Source: Chloroflexota bacterium
Lineage (GTDB): Bacteria > Chloroflexota > Dehalococcoidia > SM23-28-2 > RBG-16-64-32
Assembly (NCBI GenBank): GCA_037441345.1
Contig: JBBISJ010000006.1
Span: 3,530-67,529, forward strand
Direction of reading: 5' to 3'
DNA length: 64,000 nt
The translations under genes were made by a program, and so were the position numbers. Below are positions 4,975 to 30,946 of this stretch, piece after piece; within the stretch, counting starts at the first letter, position 1; the number at the start of each line of letters is the position of its first letter. Under the pieces are notes generated by a model. The model saw only the letters and a list, made by a program, of their open reading frames with translations, did not search any database and had not been told where the DNA came from.

Positions 4975-5116
4975 ATCCAGGAGGCCATCAACCTTAACGT
5001 GCGCGTCAGGTTTCGCGTTGCAGCCTATCAGGGCGCGGGCGCAGGGGTCAAACGGCGTTACCTGAAGAGGCGGCCAATCGGCCGCCTCTTTCCGTTCCTG
5101 CTTCGCCGGACAGCGC

Positions 5117-6160
5117 CTAGCTCAGCCCCATCTCCTGCTTGACGCCGGCCACCGCCTCGACCATGACGCGGAGCTTGTCTTCGCTCTCCTCGACGGTCCG
5201 CGTCTTGAGGCCGCAGTCGGGCAGTACCCAGATCCGCTCGGGGGGCAGACGCTTCAGCGTCCGCCGCAGCCCATCTTTTACCTCGTCAACGGTCTCCGTG
5301 AACCGGGTGTGCACGTCGGTCACGCCCAGCCCCAGGTCCTTGGCGTCGTCATAGCCAAACTCGTCGATCAGGTCAAGGTAGGCGAAATCAGTGTTCTTGA
5401 ACGCCAGATGGATCTGCTTCACGGGCAGCCGCAGCATCGCCGGGTAGATCTTCTCGACTTCGCCGTAGCAGATGTGCGTGTGGAACTCCGCGTCGATGCC
5501 GTCCACCGTGACGTGCATCGCCTCGACGGCCATGTCGAAGTCGGTGTCCGGGCGCGTGTGGATCGCGGGCTCGTCGATCTGGATGTACTTCGCGCCGGCC
5601 TCGACCAGCGCCTCGACCTCACGCCGGATCACCTTCGCCATGTCGAGCACTGCGTCGCGGCGCGACGGGTAGTGCTCGTCGAACGACCACTCCACCATCG
5701 TGTAAGCGCCGGTGAGCATCCCCTTGACCGGTCGCTCCGTCAGGCCCTGCGCGAACTTCCACATGTCGACCGTCATCGGCCCCGGCCACTCGAGCCGGTC
5801 GAAGATGATCGGCTTGTGATAGTAGCGATTGCCATACGAGCGCACCAGTCCACCCAGCTTCATCCCCTTGATCGGCGTCCCGCCCGGCTCCCCCGAGAAG
5901 TAAGCGACCATGTCGCCGCGCTCCATCTCGCCGTGGACGAGGACATCCAGGCCCACCTTCTCCTGGACGCGGATCCAGTACTCGGTCGCCTGCTTCTCCA
6001 GCCTGTCCAGCTCCTCGCGGCCGATCTTGCCCTGGGAGAACTCCGTGCGTGCCTTTGCCAGGTAGTCTGGCTTGGCGTAGCTACCGACGGCCGTCGTAAC
6101 GAGCGTCGTGGGCACGCCGCTCCAGGTCGTTGTTCGCCCGCTTGTCTGCTGTGTAACCAT
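5117..6160 (-). CDS. metE: cobalamin-independent methionine synthase, catalytic (C-terminal-type) domain protein
   Basis: Zn-binding motifs HTHICYGE and LPDCGLKTRT, plus IQIDEPA; about 347 aa, a single-barrel MetE-like protein. Confidence 0.8.
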   Translation of the reverse strand: MVTQQTSGRTTTWSGVPTTLVTTAVGSYAKPDYLAKARTEFSQGKIGREELDRLEKQATEYWIRVQEKVGLDVLVHGEMERGDMVAYFSGEPGGTPIKGMKLGGLVRSYGNRYYHKPIIFDRLEWPGPMTVDMWKFAQGLTERPVKGMLTGAYTMVEWSFDEHYPSRRDAVLDMAKVIRREVEALVEAGAKYIQIDEPAIHTRPDTDFDMAVEAMHVTVDGIDAEFHTHICYGEVEKIYPAMLRLPVKQIHLAFKNTDFAYLDLIDEFGYDDAKDLGLGVTDVHTRFTETVDEVKDGLRRTLKRLPPERIWVLPDCGLKTRTVEESEDKLRVMVEAVAGVKQEMGLS

Positions 6161-7134
6161 TACGCCGGCACTCCTTCCGCTCGCTTCGCGCCTTCCACGA
6201 GCACTTTCAGCTTCTCGAACGCCGTCTCCCGCGGCAGGTACTCGACGCCGCAGGACGGGTTGAGGTAGAGCCCGTCCGCTGGCACCAGGGCAGTCACACG
6301 CTCCACGGCGGCGGCGATCTGATCCGGCGTCTCGATCCTGGTGTTGCGTCCGTTAATCGCTCCGAACCCGAGCTTCTTGCCGAAACTCACCTTCGCCAGC
6401 GCCTCCCAGTTGGCCGGGCCAGCAACGAAGTCGAGTCCGATCACATCCGCCGGCGTATCGAGAAGCGCATCAAGAATACCCCCGCAATCGCCGAACCAGG
6501 TGTAGATGCCGGTCTCAGCGTTGACGCCGTCAAGCATCCGCGTCAGCGCGGCCGTGAACGTCCCCACCTGGTCCTTGTTCTTCACGATCATCGGATCGTT
6601 CACCTGGATGTGCGCGCAACCGGCGTCCACGAGGGCATCGATCTCGCTCCGCAGCGCCTCGGCATACGCCAGTGCCAGGCGGTTCCTGTCGTTATAGTGC
6701 TTGTCCAGCGAGAGGACAGCCAGCGTGAACGGGCCCGGCAGGATAGCCTTCACCGGGCGGCTGCTGTTCTCCTGCGCGAACCGCCAGTCCGCGGCGAGCA
6801 CCGGCTTCTGCCAGCCGATCTCGCCGACTACCTCTGGCTCGCGGAAGTAGGTGTTCGTATCCATGTACCGCTGCAGGCCGCCGATCTCGACGCCTTTGAA
6901 GTTGCGCGCGACATAAGTCTGGTCGTCGTCCCAGCGCACCTGGCCGTCCGTGATCACGTCGATCCCGGCGTCGATCTGCTCCTGGATCACCTCGATCGTG
7001 ACCTCGTTCCGCACCTGCTCGAGTTCTTCGTTGGAGAGCTCCCCGCGGTCGCGCTTGTTGATCGCATTGCGCAGCCGCGCCGGCCGGGGACGGTTTGGAA
7101 TTTTGGGATAGTTGCCTACGACTGTTGTCTGCAT
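6160..7134 (-). CDS. MetE N-terminal-domain-like protein (non-catalytic UroD/MetE barrel); its stop overlaps the start of the downstream metE-like gene
   Basis: MQTTVVGNYPKIP start, preceded by an AAGGAG Shine-Dalgarno 6 nt upstream; MetE-fold similarity but it lacks the His-x-Cys zinc motif (YTWFGDCGG, NPSCGVEY); the ORF in the track is extended to 7185 without support. Confidence 0.7.
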   Translation of the reverse strand: MQTTVVGNYPKIPNRPRPARLRNAINKRDRGELSNEELEQVRNEVTIEVIQEQIDAGIDVITDGQVRWDDDQTYVARNFKGVEIGGLQRYMDTNTYFREPEVVGEIGWQKPVLAADWRFAQENSSRPVKAILPGPFTLAVLSLDKHYNDRNRLALAYAEALRSEIDALVDAGCAHIQVNDPMIVKNKDQVGTFTAALTRMLDGVNAETGIYTWFGDCGGILDALLDTPADVIGLDFVAGPANWEALAKVSFGKKLGFGAINGRNTRIETPDQIAAAVERVTALVPADGLYLNPSCGVEYLPRETAFEKLKVLVEGAKRAEGVPA

Positions 7135-7431
7135 ACAGCTCCTTGTGACTGGCGGGGCCGGGGGGGGCGGCCCGCATCTTGCCACTGTAGCTTATCGTGG
7201 CCGGAGCGCGGGGTCGAGTGCCCCAATGACACCTGGCTCTTGGAGATCCACAGCCATGCGCGGCATCATGTGCCGGACATGCTGTCGGGCAATACCCTAC
7301 CTGAGGACATGCCAAATTTCCTAACTGAAGTATTGCTTATTGTCATTGACACACCTACGATATTAGCAGAGGCTAATATGCATCCGATGGCTCCGACAGA
7401 TGCACCAGCCGCTAGGAAGCAGACTCTTTAA
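7135..7431 (-). promoter_or_regulatory. long 5' leader/promoter of the split metE operon; a GC-rich hairpin lies just before the SD; candidate riboswitch, class not assignable
   Basis: about 300 nt of non-coding sequence upstream of a methionine-synthase gene; GCGGGCCG-C7-GGCCCCGC hairpin adjacent to the AAGGAG SD. Confidence 0.3.
7360..7379. promoter_or_regulatory. AT-rich palindrome ATATTAGC-AGAG-GCTAATAT upstream of the FTR1 permease gene; candidate metalloregulator (DtxR/IdeR- or Fur-like) operator
   Basis: perfect 8-bp arms around a 4-bp spacer, about 55 nt upstream of the 7432 start, in a GC-rich genome; 12 of 18 positions match the IdeR box TTAGGTTAGGCTAACCTAA. Confidence 0.35.
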
Positions 7432-8295
7432 ATGACGTTCTCGTTCCTCGTAACCGCCAGGGAAGGGCTGGAGATGGCCCTCATCGTTACGATCTTGCTC
7501 GGCTATCTCCGGTCGGTGGACCAGAAGCAGCACTTCCGGGCTATCTGGGCCGGCGTCGCTGCGGCAGTGGCCATCTCGGTCGGCTTCGCCGCCGGCCTTG
7601 AGATCGCCTCCCGCGAACTCGACGGCCGCGTGCTGGAGGCGTTCGAGGGCTTTACGATGCTCTTTGCCGTTGGCGTCCTGACGTGGATGCTGTTCTGGAT
7701 GCGCAGCCAGTCCACCGGGATATCCAGGGACCTGCGGGCCAGGATGGACCTGGCCCTTTCGACCGGGTCCGTCACGGCCCTCGCCCTTCTCGCGTTCTCC
7801 TCGGTTGGGCGCGAGGGCATCGAAACTGCCCTGTTCCTCTTTGCCGGGTCGACCAACCAGGGATCGGACATGTCCTTCCTCGTGGGCGGCCTGCTTGGCT
7901 TCGGCGTGGCGGCCGCCGCCGGAGTCGTCATCTACTACGGCTTTGCCACACTCCCACTCAAACACTTCTTCAGCGTTTCTGCAGTCGTCCTCATGGTCCT
8001 CGCCGCAGGCCTTCTCACGAACGCTCTGACCGAACTGCACGAGGCCACGATCATCCCCGACCTCGGTGTGCGACCCTGGGACACCGAGGAGACGCTCCCC
8101 ATGACTTCCGACCTCGGCAAGTTCCTCCACACCGTCCTGGGATACGACTCCGCACCCGCGATCAGCCAGATCGCCCTCTACTGGTCATACATCTCGCTGG
8201 CCTTGGCCGCCTACTTCGCCTTACCCCTGGTCCTTCCGGCGCGGCCGCCCGCCCGGGCCATGACCCCTGAACCATCACAAGCAACGCCCCGATAA
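7432..8295 (+). CDS. FTR1/EfeU-family high-affinity iron permease
   Basis: two REGxE motifs (TAREGLEMALIV and GREGIETALFLFAG) in transmembrane segments; about 7 TM helices. Confidence 0.7.
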   Translation: MTFSFLVTAREGLEMALIVTILLGYLRSVDQKQHFRAIWAGVAAAVAISVGFAAGLEIASRELDGRVLEAFEGFTMLFAVGVLTWMLFWMRSQSTGISRDLRARMDLALSTGSVTALALLAFSSVGREGIETALFLFAGSTNQGSDMSFLVGGLLGFGVAAAAGVVIYYGFATLPLKHFFSVSAVVLMVLAAGLLTNALTELHEATIIPDLGVRPWDTEETLPMTSDLGKFLHTVLGYDSAPAISQIALYWSYISLALAAYFALPLVLPARPPARAMTPEPSQATPR

Positions 8296-8318: not shown

Positions 8319-9083
8319 ATGTTTCGTACCGCAGTGACCGCTTGCCTCGCACTGCTCGCACTCGCCATCGCCGCCTGTTCCGCAAGTGGTGAAGGCGGCC
8401 GCGAAATCCTCATCACTCAGACGGACGACGGCTGCACGCCTGAGTCAGTGGTGGTGAAGACGGGCGAGAAACTGAAGCTTACAGGAAAGAACGAAAGCGG
8501 CCAGACCTACGAACTCGAAGGCACCAACGGGACCCGGCTCGAGGAGATTCTGATTCCGGAAGGCCGCAAGCGCTCCGTTGGCTACGCGGTGCCTGACGAA
8601 GAGGGTACTTACGACGTCAAGTGCTACCAGCCCGGCGGGAAGTCCACGATCATCAAGCTCGTCGCCACTGCGGCCGGCAAGGCCGGCTCTGACGGGTCCG
8701 CCGATCCGGCCGGCGAAAGCGCGAACGAGCCCGAGATCGTCGGGGGGAACGACGACCCTGCCGACGATACCGTAGCTGTCCAGTTGTCAGAGTACGAGGT
8801 GTCAGCGGACAAGCTGACGGTAAAGGCGGGCAACATTGAGTTTGCGGCTGTCAACACCTCAGCCCGTGAGGTCCACGAACTGGCCGTTCTGCAGGTCAAG
8901 GAGTCAGGCGGCTTCAACGTCATCGGCGAGATCGAGGATATGCCTCCAGGGACTGATGCGTCGGTCCGGCTGAAGCTGGAGCCCGGTTCCTATGAACTGG
9001 CGTGCCTGATCGTGCCCGGAGAAGAAGGCAGCACCGCCGACCACTACGCCGAAGGCATGCACACAGCCTTTACCGTCGAATAG
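8319..9083 (+). CDS. lipoprotein with two cupredoxin-like domains (FtrB/EfeO-N-like partner of the FTR1 permease)
   Basis: lipobox LAIAAC-SAS; C-terminal Cys...His...Met copper-site-like motif (ACLIV...HYAEGMHTAF); immediately downstream of the FTR1 gene. Confidence 0.55.
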   Translation: MFRTAVTACLALLALAIAACSASGEGGREILITQTDDGCTPESVVVKTGEKLKLTGKNESGQTYELEGTNGTRLEEILIPEGRKRSVGYAVPDEEGTYDVKCYQPGGKSTIIKLVATAAGKAGSDGSADPAGESANEPEIVGGNDDPADDTVAVQLSEYEVSADKLTVKAGNIEFAAVNTSAREVHELAVLQVKESGGFNVIGEIEDMPPGTDASVRLKLEPGSYELACLIVPGEEGSTADHYAEGMHTAFTVE

Positions 9084-11657: not shown

Positions 11658-12015
11658 TGGTGGAGACGGAGGGGAATTGAACCCCTCGTCCAGAAGAAAC
11701 CCGGCCTGGATGTCCTACAAGCTTAGCCGTCGCTTTGATCTTGCCCGCCGTACCGCCGTCGGCCACGTAACCGGCAGGCCAGCCGATGGTCTTTTGTCCC
11801 CCTTATCGGCGTGGGGAGGACAGCACCCCGACATTACGTCGCCGGACTCCGCCCATCGGGGTGAGGCCTGAGCCAGGCGTCGCTAGCCTAAATTAGGCGG
11901 CGAGAGCGTACTGGTTAGTGTTGCCAGTTGCTTTTGCGCCGGTCGATTAACGAGGATCCGGCGTCCTCGGCTTGCAATCCGGGCCCAACTTTCCCTGTCG
12001 AACCCTTGCGTCCCC
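11658..12015 (-). ncRNA. ssrA: tmRNA (SsrA), about 358 nt; tag reading frame ends ...NQYALAA-UAA
   Basis: 5' GGGGACGCAAGGGUUCGACAGGG and 3' GGGGUUCAAUUCCCCUCCGUCUCCACCA (tRNA-like acceptor and T-arm); tag codons GGC AAC ACU AAC CAG UAC GCU CUC GCC GCC UAA at 11893..11925 (- strand). Confidence 0.85.
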
Positions 12016-25894: not shown

Positions 25895-25971
25895 GGGCGA
25901 TTAGCTCAGTTGGTTAGAGCGCAGCGTTGACATCGCTGAGGTCGTAGGTTCAAATCCTACATCGCCCACCA
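25895..25971 (+). tRNA. tRNA-Val (anticodon GAC)
   Basis: GGGCGAT acceptor paired with ATCGCCC, D-arm GCTCAGTTGGTTAGAGC, anticodon loop TTGACAT, T-arm GGTTCAAATCC, CCA encoded. Confidence 0.85.
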
Positions 25972-30871: not shown

Positions 30872-30946
30872 GGGGCAGTACCTCAAGGGTAGAGGATCAG
30901 TCTTATAAACTGACGGTTGCGGGTTCGAGTCCTGCCTGCCCCACCA
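30872..30946 (+). tRNA. tRNA with anticodon UAU (tRNA-Ile, AUA-decoding type), CCA encoded
   Basis: acceptor GGGGCAG paired with CTGCCCC, D-stem CCTC/GAGG, anticodon stem TCAGT/ACTGA with loop CTTATAA, T-arm GCGGG-TTCGAGT-CCTGC, discriminator A. Confidence 0.7.

Follow-up and report, generated by a model that had tools for sequence, protein, structure and literature searches.

Canonical cobalamin-independent methionine synthase, MetE (TIGR01371; structures 1T7L, 1XDJ and 1U1J), consists of one chain of 676 residues or more (model cut-off 929.95 bits) built from two homologous barrels, the N-terminal one carrying disabling substitutions. In T. maritima MetE, the N barrel reads F230/Y232/D253/C309 with LVNEPA, and its zinc/homocysteine site is disabled (Pejchal and Ludwig, 2005, PMC539065); the pattern is His to an aromatic residue, Cys to Tyr or another aromatic, Glu to Asp, retention of the last Cys, and QIDEPA to xVNEPA (PMC539065). 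The core synthases MesA, MesB, MesC and MesD are instead single-barrel, zinc-dependent homocysteine methyltransferases that need no N-barrel partner and rely on corrinoid proteins or MesX. The arrangement closest to the one described here is the split MetE of Price, Deutschbauer and Arkin (2021, PLoS Genet, PMC7857596), typified by archaeal PF1268/PF1269: two adjacent genes of about 320-350 codons, one encoding an N-barrel homologue that lacks a zinc site, the other a catalytic Meth_synt_2 barrel. According to earlier work cited in that paper, PF1268 of P. furiosus forms a complex with PF1269, and the authors of the paper reassigned the PRK04326 family to the catalytic subunits of split MetE. 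As consulted here, the paper mentions one bacterium in which split MetE genes lie side by side, Sulfobacillus sp. hq2, and its Table S1 has Dehalococcoides as the sole entry under Chloroflexi (PMC7857596).

The window analysed here, 64,000 nucleotides of a Chloroflexota bacterium, carries on its minus strand a gene pair that we read, with a probability of roughly 0.8, as a two-subunit cobalamin-independent (MetE-type) methionine synthase, predicted from an N-barrel and a catalytic-barrel polypeptide. On this reading the pair is a split MetE in the sense of Price et al. (2021): the arrangement was already known, mostly from archaea, and the bacterial member is new. Its identity is based on homology, fold, motif pattern and gene order together with the conservation of that order; from these we infer the heterodimer and the methyl donor. 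The features of the pair are:

6160..7134, minus strand: predicted N-barrel subunit gene of the split MetE (open reading frame, 324 aa; a TIM barrel of MetE type whose zinc/homocysteine site is disabled).
5117..6160, minus strand: predicted gene of the catalytic zinc/homocysteine barrel subunit (open reading frame, 347 aa).
6158..6162, minus strand: TAATG stop/start overlap, read from the sequence; it implies translational coupling.
7139..7144, minus strand: AAGGAG Shine-Dalgarno of the N gene, read from the sequence, 4 nt before the ATG at 7134.
6171..6176, minus strand: AAGGAG Shine-Dalgarno of the catalytic gene, read from the sequence, lying within the N gene close to its 3' end; the ATG at 6160 follows after 10 nt.
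5066..5089, minus strand: putative terminator-like hairpin beyond the catalytic gene, with a stem of 10 base pairs, AGAGGCGGCC GATT GGCCGCCTCT, and a weak T tail.

A sequence-only reading of this DNA had proposed a MetE split into two polypeptides whose stop and start overlap, behind an AAGGAG Shine-Dalgarno. That description is supported: matches in Pfam, NCBIfam and the PDB, motifs, fold and conserved gene order all agree with a split MetE, base 6160 belongs both to the stop TAA (6162-6160) and to the start ATG (6160-6158), a 1-nt overlap, and the Shine-Dalgarno lies at 7144-7139. A TAATG or TGATG junction is also found in about 30 related loci, others having spacers of 20-120 nt, and (A/G)AGGAG stands at the equivalent place upstream of the N gene in most relatives. 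Lacking a T run, the hairpin at 5066..5089 went unreported in the terminator scan.

Profile searches against the two MetE domains place both proteins in the MetE family (Meth_synt_1, Meth_synt_2 and PRK04326). The N protein scores 132.5 bits on Meth_synt_2 and 81.4 on Meth_synt_1, and it aligns with its partner at 30% identity (E 2e-45), the two being paralogous barrels; in an alignment that likewise has N and C 30% identical, the two domains of the canonical Algoriphagus MetE share 17%. Y, W, D and C occupy its four zinc-ligand columns, and VNDP (IQVNDP) replaces IDEP (QIDEPA), which is the disabled-site pattern of the MetE N-terminal barrel; the family as a whole mostly shows x-Y-D-C. The proposal that the upstream protein lacks the His/Cys ligands was thus right for the positions now held by Tyr and Trp and wrong for the last Cys, which is kept (NPSCG), as it is in canonical N barrels. 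The N-domain motifs DTNxY, GRN and SCG are present as DTNTY, NGRNT and PSCG, and the N-barrel His111 of canonical MetE corresponds to Tyr. An N-family HMM gives 121.7 bits on a canonical MetE N domain, compared with 37.7 bits for the C-family HMM, and the best PDB matches of the AF2 model (pLDDT 85) are MetE structures (Foldseek TM 0.79-0.85, E ~1e-18). Among 68 unique homologues, 39% of N positions are at least 95% conserved, and the protein is under strong purifying selection.

Could the upstream gene instead encode a UroD-like or MT2-type (methylcobamide:CoM) methyltransferase that has nothing to do with MetE function, the outcome that would have undone the split-MetE proposal? Pfam URO-D does match at 33.2 bits over residues 156-317, half of the protein, and NCBI homologues bear names such as 'uroporphyrinogen decarboxylase family protein' and 'methylcobamide--CoM methyltransferase'. 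Both Meth_synt scores are nevertheless well above that of URO-D, Foldseek against UroD/MT2 structures gives TM 0.42-0.62 (E 1e-7 to 1e-9) compared with about 0.8 for MetE, the His/Cys zinc site that MT2 enzymes need is missing, and the protein carries MetE N-domain motifs and is partnered with a MetE catalytic barrel in nearly all loci. We regard an unrelated UroD/MT2 enzyme as extremely improbable, and we retain the N protein as the non-catalytic half of a split MetE.

The catalytic (C) protein reaches 266 bits on Pfam Meth_synt_2, 199 bits against the T. maritima MetE C barrel, and 381 bits on the NCBIfam model PRK04326 'methionine synthase', just below the equivalog cut-off of 406; on other short-synthase NCBIfam models it falls far under their cut-offs. 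Like the canonical C barrel it has the His/Cys/Cys ligands, the DMV motif, a D-x-H motif (DVH) and the pterin-stacking Trp (MVEWSF), and H229 and C231 (HxC) and C316 (DCGLKTR) are invariant. The sequence-only reading had located the zinc ligands in HTHICYGE and DCGLKTR: this is correct for H229, C231 and C316, but the Glu of HICYGE is not a ligand, the true fourth column (Glu642 in T. maritima, Glu665 in E. coli) being occupied by Ala253. Of the His, Cys, Glu and Cys that make up the site in MetE catalytic barrels, three are thus present.

A different assignment of the C protein would be a stand-alone core synthase of MesA/MesB type that takes its methyl group from methylcobalamin or a corrinoid protein, its upstream paralogue having some other role (regulation, chaperoning or a different substrate). 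MesA-MesD are zinc-dependent single barrels of like length. In favor of this assignment, the window belongs to Chloroflexota, the Glu-to-Ala change makes the active site non-canonical, and the short MetE-like enzymes of Dehalococcoides and methanogens are described in the sources consulted as using methylcobalamin rather than methyl-THF (PMC7005905, PMC7857596). Yet the best short-synthase match is to PRK04326, the split-MetE catalytic family according to Price et al., and the pterin-stacking Trp, DMV and DVH are kept. The locus also encodes a dedicated N partner, unlike those of MesA-MesD, and this partner is syntenic in nearly all loci, translationally coupled, under strong purifying selection and exactly of the pattern seen in the N barrel of folate-dependent MetE. 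No MesX or corrinoid protein gene was seen near the pair, and neither a corrinoid protein nor a Wood-Ljungdahl gene was seen in the annotated parts of the window or in the flanks of the Chloroflexota loci examined. A stand-alone core synthase is accordingly an unlikely reading of the C protein, and a two-subunit MetE the favored one.

How the pair fits existing rules for recognizing MetE depends on the rule. It falls outside TIGR01371, being two open reading frames (C 280.5 and N 106.8 bits, compared with 929.95). It differs from one-piece MetE in having no 35-residue linker and in lacking the insertions that enlarge the domain interface there, beta4-alpha4 in the C barrel and beta8-alpha8 in the N barrel, as well as in its Ala for the Glu ligand and its Tyr for His111. 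For split MetE, Price et al. ask of the catalytic component at most 400 residues, a Meth_synt_2 barrel and at least 200 bits against PF1269 by phmmer; here NCBIfam models stood in for PF1268/PF1269, MesA and MesB, and the C protein has a suitable length and barrel and lies close under the cut-off of PRK04326, the stand-in for PF1269 that is assumed to cover the archaeal short synthases. The second component should have at most 400 residues and pass the Meth_synt_1 trusted cut-off, which the N protein does (81.4 bits compared with 27). It nonetheless fails the operational filter of the same authors, a Meth_synt_1 score above the Meth_synt_2 score, as do six of ten sampled members of the N-type family, the other four passing; Price et al. 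themselves report that true partners are lost by this filter, for example AMET1_0515 (PMC7857596). The genes are adjacent, and the pair is kept in about 90 loci, across phyla and domains.

N precedes C in nearly all of the ~90 Chloroflexota loci, and the same pair occurs in a KSB1 bacterium, in another bacterial MAG and in a Micrarchaeia archaeon whose operon continues past it with MTHFR and ThyX, that is, with folate one-carbon genes. Because N-then-C order is conserved in Chloroflexota, KSB1 and, beside MTHFR, in Micrarchaeia, and because the barrels are of MetE type, we read the pair as a split MetE. Locus L101, which is archaeal, has the two genes in this order and coupled in this way; the catalytic partners there and at L102 score 424 and 410 bits on PRK04326, above the equivalog cut-off. 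Like the catalytic subunit of the archaeal split MetE, that of the pair described here lies in or next to this family. The pair differs from the archaeal split MetE in its bacterial host, in an N protein that scores higher on Meth_synt_2 than on Meth_synt_1, in its sub-cut-off PRK04326 score and in Ala253. A fused N-type plus C-type protein also exists (P0247). Neither in the window nor at those Chloroflexota loci that were examined does a folate gene adjoin the pair, and for this reason the methyl donor is assigned here by inference only.

In the proposed working of the enzyme, the C barrel would bind zinc through His229, Cys231 and Cys316 and activate homocysteine as the thiolate, its own loops carrying the main folate determinants (the pterin-stacking Trp, DMV and DVH). 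The N protein, a presumed catalytically dead barrel homologous to the N-terminal barrel of one-piece MetE, would sit face to face on C, by analogy with solved MetE structures, and shut the cleft, bringing homocysteine together with methyl-tetrahydrofolate (or a related methyl-pterin) in a ternary complex. Translational coupling at the TAATG overlap would yield the subunits in similar amounts. Transcription of the operon probably starts from a promoter some 50 nt ahead of the start codon and would end at the hairpin after the catalytic gene.

These observations extend the host range of split MetE, an arrangement earlier viewed as mainly archaeal, to Chloroflexota, KSB1 and further uncultured bacteria. 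They also imply that the rule for the non-catalytic subunit (Meth_synt_1 above Meth_synt_2) misses a large family: about 120 of 125 full-length sequences among the best 150 representatives are of N type, and named records of that family, where seen, often read 'UroD family' or 'methylcobamide-CoM methyltransferase'. Because the recognition rule misses these proteins and their labels are often UroD- or MT2-like, pathway-reconstruction tools could falsely report a methionine synthase gap in such genomes.

The zinc site itself sets the window clade apart. Ala occupies the Glu-ligand position in 42 of 44 sequences in one alignment and in all 121 of another, and His251, two residues before Ala253, is present in 119 of the 121; other split-MetE catalytic partners, unlike those of this clade, keep D-x-E. 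Since the Glu ligand is lost across the clade, a three-ligand site can be proposed. We suggest, tentatively and as somewhat less probable than not, that in this Chloroflexota clade (with some Anaerolineae and one Actinomycetota MAG) the Glu ligand is permanently lost, leaving a zinc site of three ligands, in which His251 might or might not stand in for the fourth, and a mechanistically distinct MetE, and that, the N-type family being large, split MetE is much commoner in bacteria than recorded. Such a site would resemble that of BHMT, which has Leu at the Glu-ligand position and binds homocysteine without the zinc inversion typical of MetE. The Glu-to-Ala site is in this respect a natural test of the fourth ligand and of zinc inversion in MetE chemistry.

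The DNA upstream of the pair had attracted attention of its own. Riboswitch control of metE genes is frequent, and the sequence-only reading placed a structured untranslated leader of about 300 nt, possibly a SAM or cobalamin riboswitch, before the N gene. The 297 nt in question (7135..7431) are in fact the whole of a divergent intergenic region, reaching to the start of an efeU/FTR1-like gene, with these features:

7432..8295, plus strand: efeU/FTR1-like gene, diverging from the N gene.
7298..7377, no strand assigned: AT-rich conserved block with the palindrome TTAGC-N4-GCTAA (7363-7376) and TTGACA on the plus strand.
7189..7217, minus strand: candidate promoter-like element of the operon, -35 TCGACC (7217-7212), 17-nt spacer, -10 TAAGCT (7194-7189).
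7152..7175, minus strand: GC-rich hairpin, GCGGGCCG / C7 / CGGCCCCGC, with 8 base pairs, one bulged C and a C7 loop.

From its position, the promoter-like element predicts a transcription start near 7182 and hence a 5'UTR of only about 47 nt. The element is kept in the closest relative, L026, inside a proximal island of ~80 nt that is 77-93% identical, and of 72 distinct loci 34 carry T[TC]GAC[CA]-N16-19-TAnnnT ahead of the N gene, where chance alone would give 0.47; in most of them it reads TTGACC-N17/18-TGC-TAGACT. A scan with the E. coli consensus returned no promoter site, the element lying under its threshold; the lineage-specific motif emerged only from comparison with relatives. Farther out, 7226-7295 is about 53% identical to L026, the neutral level (third codon positions, 57%). 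The AT-rich block is kept in 12 loci; its GC content is 37-45%, compared with ~65% in the flanks, and its palindrome occurs once in the window (0.08 expected). Where other genes have come between FTR1 and the N gene, as at L025 and L006, the paired sites remain beside FTR1; the block most likely belongs to the efeU/FTR1-like gene, and on this sequence comparison it is unlikely to be part of a methionine synthase leader. In the aligned divergent intergenic regions of 13 loci, only the AT-rich operator/promoter block and the TTGACC...TAGACT promoter are common, and the hairpin is not.

It is very improbable that the region holds a riboswitch or attenuator of a new, unclassified kind for sensing SAM, methionine or cobalamin. 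The position upstream of a metE-type gene is all that the region has in common with SAM and cobalamin riboswitches; the fold of the whole 312-nt stretch (z = -3.77) and the hairpin just 5' of the Shine-Dalgarno do speak for structure, but the z-score is partly due to palindromic DNA sites. The hairpin exists, as had been noticed, at 7175-7152, yet at -13.2 kcal/mol (z -1.39) it is within chance for its base composition, 19 of 200 shuffles folding as well; it leaves the Shine-Dalgarno uncovered and no U run follows it. Identical stems occur in L026 only, with no compensatory change, and unrelated sequence takes their place in other lineages. Structure prediction does not rescue the structured leader either: the window leader (48 nt) has z -0.06 and the predicted leaders of 34 loci average 0.05, no more structured than shuffles, a value on which we also rejected the hairpin as a conserved 5' stabilizer. 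Rfam gave no relevant match at the gathering threshold in the whole window or in 19 related loci, the covariance models for SAM-I to SAM-VI, SAM/SAH, cobalamin and T-box included, and at E <= 10 the sole match in 7050-7520 was a chance one to a eukaryotic lncRNA. There is no terminator, no alternative structure sequestering the Shine-Dalgarno, no covariation and no conserved aptamer-like core or expression platform. Conservation is confined to the efeU-linked block and the proximal island with its promoter-like motif, the segment between them drifting at the neutral rate, and several relatives have short, unrelated or no leaders upstream of the N gene. The upstream DNA is an ordinary promoter region that the divergent genes share; it shows no sign of a riboswitch, which would thus play no part in control of the operon, and the idea, potentially the more exciting part of the sequence-only reading, can be dropped.

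Other candidates in the region were considered. Neither a promoter of sigma-54 type nor a DtxR/IdeR or Fur identity of TTAGC-N4-GCTAA agrees in spacing with the consensus sequences, and a Met-rich upstream open reading frame in the leader (MMPRM..., read by eye) is missing from L026 and was treated as chance. Separately, a small upstream open reading frame of the soil subclade matches Pfam DUF5320 at sub-threshold level only (E 0.08).

The two overlapping genes encode a bacterial (Chloroflexota) split MetE, a cobalamin-independent methionine synthase made as an N barrel (N) and a catalytic barrel (C). The kind is already known; in this member the N subunit is unusually close to the catalytic barrel. 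That MetE is divided here between two polypeptides, as the sequence-only reading proposed, is upheld by the N-barrel pattern of the first, the catalytic barrel of the second and the retention of the pair in about 90 loci. The elements of the operon, in window coordinates, are:

6160..7134, minus strand: N open reading frame, 324 aa, ATG at 7134
5117..6160, minus strand: C open reading frame, 347 aa
7144-7139, minus strand: AAGGAG before N, read from the sequence
6176-6171, minus strand: AAGGAG before C, 10 nt ahead of the C start
6162-6158, minus strand: TAATG junction, N stop TAA (6162-6160) and C start ATG (6160-6158) with one base in common
5066..5089, minus strand: GC-rich 10-bp hairpin (AGAGGCGGCC-GATT-GGCCGCCTCT), 28 nt past the C stop codon, likely a terminator although it has no clear U tract

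The longer, GTG-initiated form of the N frame (to 7185) is not the one in use: the homologues all begin with MQTT and show no conservation upstream.

Split MetE was defined from archaeal pairs such as the adjacent PF1268/PF1269 of P. furiosus (Price, Deutschbauer and Arkin 2021, PMC7857596), for which earlier work cited there describes a complex. It occurs mainly in Halobacteria and Thermoprotei; one bacterium, Sulfobacillus, is named with adjacent genes, and the Chloroflexi entry of the taxonomic table in that study holds only Dehalococcoides, with MesB. N and C agree with the definition save for one operational filter, a higher score to Meth_synt_1 than to Meth_synt_2, which by its authors' account drops true partners (PMC7857596) and which 4/10 sampled N-type members pass and 6/10 fail. 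A methyl-pterin donor is predicted for split MetE (PMC7857596); by analogy, the window pair would use such a donor and N and C would form a complex.

The identity of N cannot be read from whole-domain scores, because N resembles both barrels. It shares 30% identity with C (E 2e-45), and its Pfam scores are 132.5 bits to Meth_synt_2, 81.4 bits to Meth_synt_1 and a weak 33.2 bits to URO-D. On a canonical MetE from Algoriphagus (locus L020), the N-family HMM scores 121.7 bits to the N domain and 150.5 bits to the C domain, against 37.7 and 280 bits for the C-family HMM. The MetE N barrel arose by duplication of the zinc/homocysteine barrel, and specific substitutions disabled its site (Pejchal and Ludwig, PMC539065): in T. 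maritima, Phe230, Tyr232 and Asp253 replace the His, Cys and Glu ligands, Cys309 is retained and QIDEPA has become LVNEPA (PMC539065). At the same four columns N has Tyr, Trp, Asp and Cys, together with IQVNDP, and the x-Tyr-Asp-(Cys) pattern recurs in about 120 of 125 full-length representatives of its homologues. N also carries the N-domain signature motif RYMDTNTYFREPE (canonical KWFDTNYHYIVPE), INGRNT (canonical IDGRNI) and NPSCG (canonical PSCS). At the level of sequence, this position-specific evidence settles N as being of the N-barrel type, and the expectation of a MetE N barrel devoid of the His and Cys ligands is borne out by the Tyr and Trp in their place. The AlphaFold2 model of N (pLDDT 85.3, pTM 0.86) matches MetE and MesD structures with TM 0.79-0.85 (E ~1e-18), but UroD and MT2 enzymes only with TM 0.42-0.62 (E 1e-7 to 1e-9). 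An unrelated UroD-like enzyme, part of the outcome that would have overturned the earlier reading, is thus contradicted by the N-barrel substitutions, the N-domain motifs and the MetE fold match. Public records of N-type proteins (P0124, P0138, P0034, P0055, P0063 and others) bear the names 'methylcobamide--CoM methyltransferase' or 'uroporphyrinogen decarboxylase family protein'; for this family, the UroD-family and methylcobamide--CoM names are probably wrong.

C is the MetE catalytic barrel: it scores 266 bits to Meth_synt_2, 199 bits to the T. maritima C barrel and 381 bits to the NCBIfam model PRK04326 'methionine synthase' (cut-off 406). His229, Cys231 and Cys316, the counterparts of T. 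maritima His618, Cys620 and Cys704, are invariant in the T. maritima alignment and the family alignment (44 unique sequences). C also has the DMV and D-x-H motifs and the pterin-stacking Trp in MVEWSF (T. maritima Trp539), their roles being taken from PMC539065. The fourth zinc ligand of MetE (T. maritima Glu642, E. coli Glu665) aligns gap-free with Ala253, and Ala occupies this position in 42/44 Chloroflexota C sequences and in 121/121 sequences surrounding a representative (50% identity) from that clade (P0259, P0280-P0398), a set that takes in records named Anaerolineae and Actinomycetota. Judging by these alignments, the C subunit is without the Glu zinc ligand. The HICYGE motif of the sequence-only reading therefore keeps its His and Cys as ligands but loses its 'E', since the true position is Ala253. 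His251 (QIHLAF), two residues earlier, is found in 119/121 sequences, the remaining two having Ser or Asn; it, or water, may serve as the fourth ligand. D-x-E is retained at this site in other split-MetE C partners, and a fused protein (P0247) has H-x-E. In BHMT, Leu stands at the Glu equivalent, and zinc inversion is precluded there (PMC539065).

The N barrel is not to be called a folate-binding domain, since it is mainly loops of the C barrel that carry the determinants for folate (Pejchal and Ludwig, PMC539065). We accordingly describe N as a lid barrel, which would complete the cleft of C. One-piece MetE has a linker and two insertions that enlarge the interface (PMC539065); the split N and C lack all three.

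N has its relatives in Chloroflexota and Dehalococcoidia MAGs, and in the approximately 90 loci (genomes and metagenomes) the C gene lies 3' of N wherever the sequence extends far enough. The junction is a TAATG or TGATG overlap in about 30 loci and a 20-120 nt spacer in others, with an extra gene in between in two. Purifying selection acts strongly on both families: conservation reaches at least 95% at 39% of N positions and 50% of C positions. Outside Chloroflexota, an N-type gene followed by a C-type gene occurs in a KSB1 bacterium, another bacterial MAG and a Micrarchaeia archaeon, the KSB1 and archaeal C partners exceeding the PRK04326 equivalog cut-off. The representative search also returned P0247 (699 aa), a natural fusion of N-type and C-type barrels whose N half scores 184 bits to the N-family HMM versus 122 bits for the canonical MetE N domain; it may represent a step between the split and the canonical form. 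Together, these loci, the pairs outside Chloroflexota and the fusion define a conserved two-component system. In the Micrarchaeia locus the pair is followed by MTHFR and ThyX, makers and users of folate one-carbon units, which ties the system to folate one-carbon genes.

Regulation is a different matter. The sequence-only reading placed a structured, untranslated leader of about 300 nt before N and noted that SAM or cobalamin riboswitches normally control metE from this position. The interval, 297 bp long (7135..7431), ends at the start codon of a divergent gene (7432..8295, plus strand) and is therefore a shared divergent intergenic region rather than a demonstrated leader. Rfam gave no match anywhere near the operon at the gathering threshold, only a chance eukaryotic lncRNA match between 7050 and 7520 at E <= 10, and in 19 related loci tmRNA but no riboswitch family. 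The hairpin at 7175-7152 folds with -13.2 kcal/mol (z -1.39), leaves the Shine-Dalgarno sequence uncovered and is followed by no U tract; it shows no covariation, because its stems are identical in L026, the closest relative with DNA (N protein 85% identical). Folding of the whole 312-nt stretch gives z -3.77, with DNA palindromes within it, and predicted leaders from 34 loci are no more structured than shuffles (mean z 0.05; window leader -0.06). Nothing in these results thus points to a riboswitch or an attenuator upstream of N, and the structured leader is not supported.

Comparison with L026 reveals two conserved islands, 7135-7217 and 7296-7377. Identity in the stretch between them (7226-7295) is about 53%, a neutral level judging by the 57% at third codon positions. 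Within the proximal island lies TCGACC-N17-TAAGCT (7189..7217), and a corresponding motif precedes N in 34/72 distinct loci where chance predicts 0.47; the majority of copies are TTGACC-N17/18-TGC-TAGACT with an extended -10 (e.g. L027, L008, L013). We take the motif as the probable operon promoter, which would leave a 5'UTR of about 47 nt comprising the hairpin and the Shine-Dalgarno sequence. In a soil subclade (L018:3820-4000, L041:1250-1420, L085, L014), promoter and N gene flank a small ORF (about 55-60 aa) whose N-terminal half is aromatic and rich in Gly (WFRFGFAPPFGFWFRS) and whose tail is a coiled coil. Some loci seem to carry a frameshifted version of this ORF, and its sole Pfam match is sub-threshold (DUF5320, E 0.08).

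The distal island is most probably part of the transporter gene's own upstream region. The features concerned, and the RNA genes of the window, are:

7432..8295, plus strand: EfeU/FTR1-like permease gene (FTR1/EfeU match), divergent from the methionine synthase operon
8319..9083, plus strand: cupredoxin/EfeO-like gene, following the permease gene
7296-7377 (about 7298..7377): AT-rich conserved block with paired palindromic sites
11658..12015, minus strand: tmRNA gene
25895..25968 and 30872..30943, plus strand: two tRNA genes

At least 12 related loci preserve this divergent layout. A perfect TTAGC-N4-GCTAA palindrome, unique in the window, lies at 7363-7376 and a degenerate second one at about 7302-7315; relatives have a second copy 61 bp away. 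The assignment follows from the site pair keeping company with FTR1, both in L025, where FTR1 and N have an additional gene between them, and in L006, where another such pair stands ahead of a PhnD/C/E-like ABC transporter operon. The paired palindromes look like a putative operator for a regulator, possibly a metal-responsive one. L001 and L012 also have a tmRNA gene no more than about 4 kb from the N/C pair, a matter of local synteny only.
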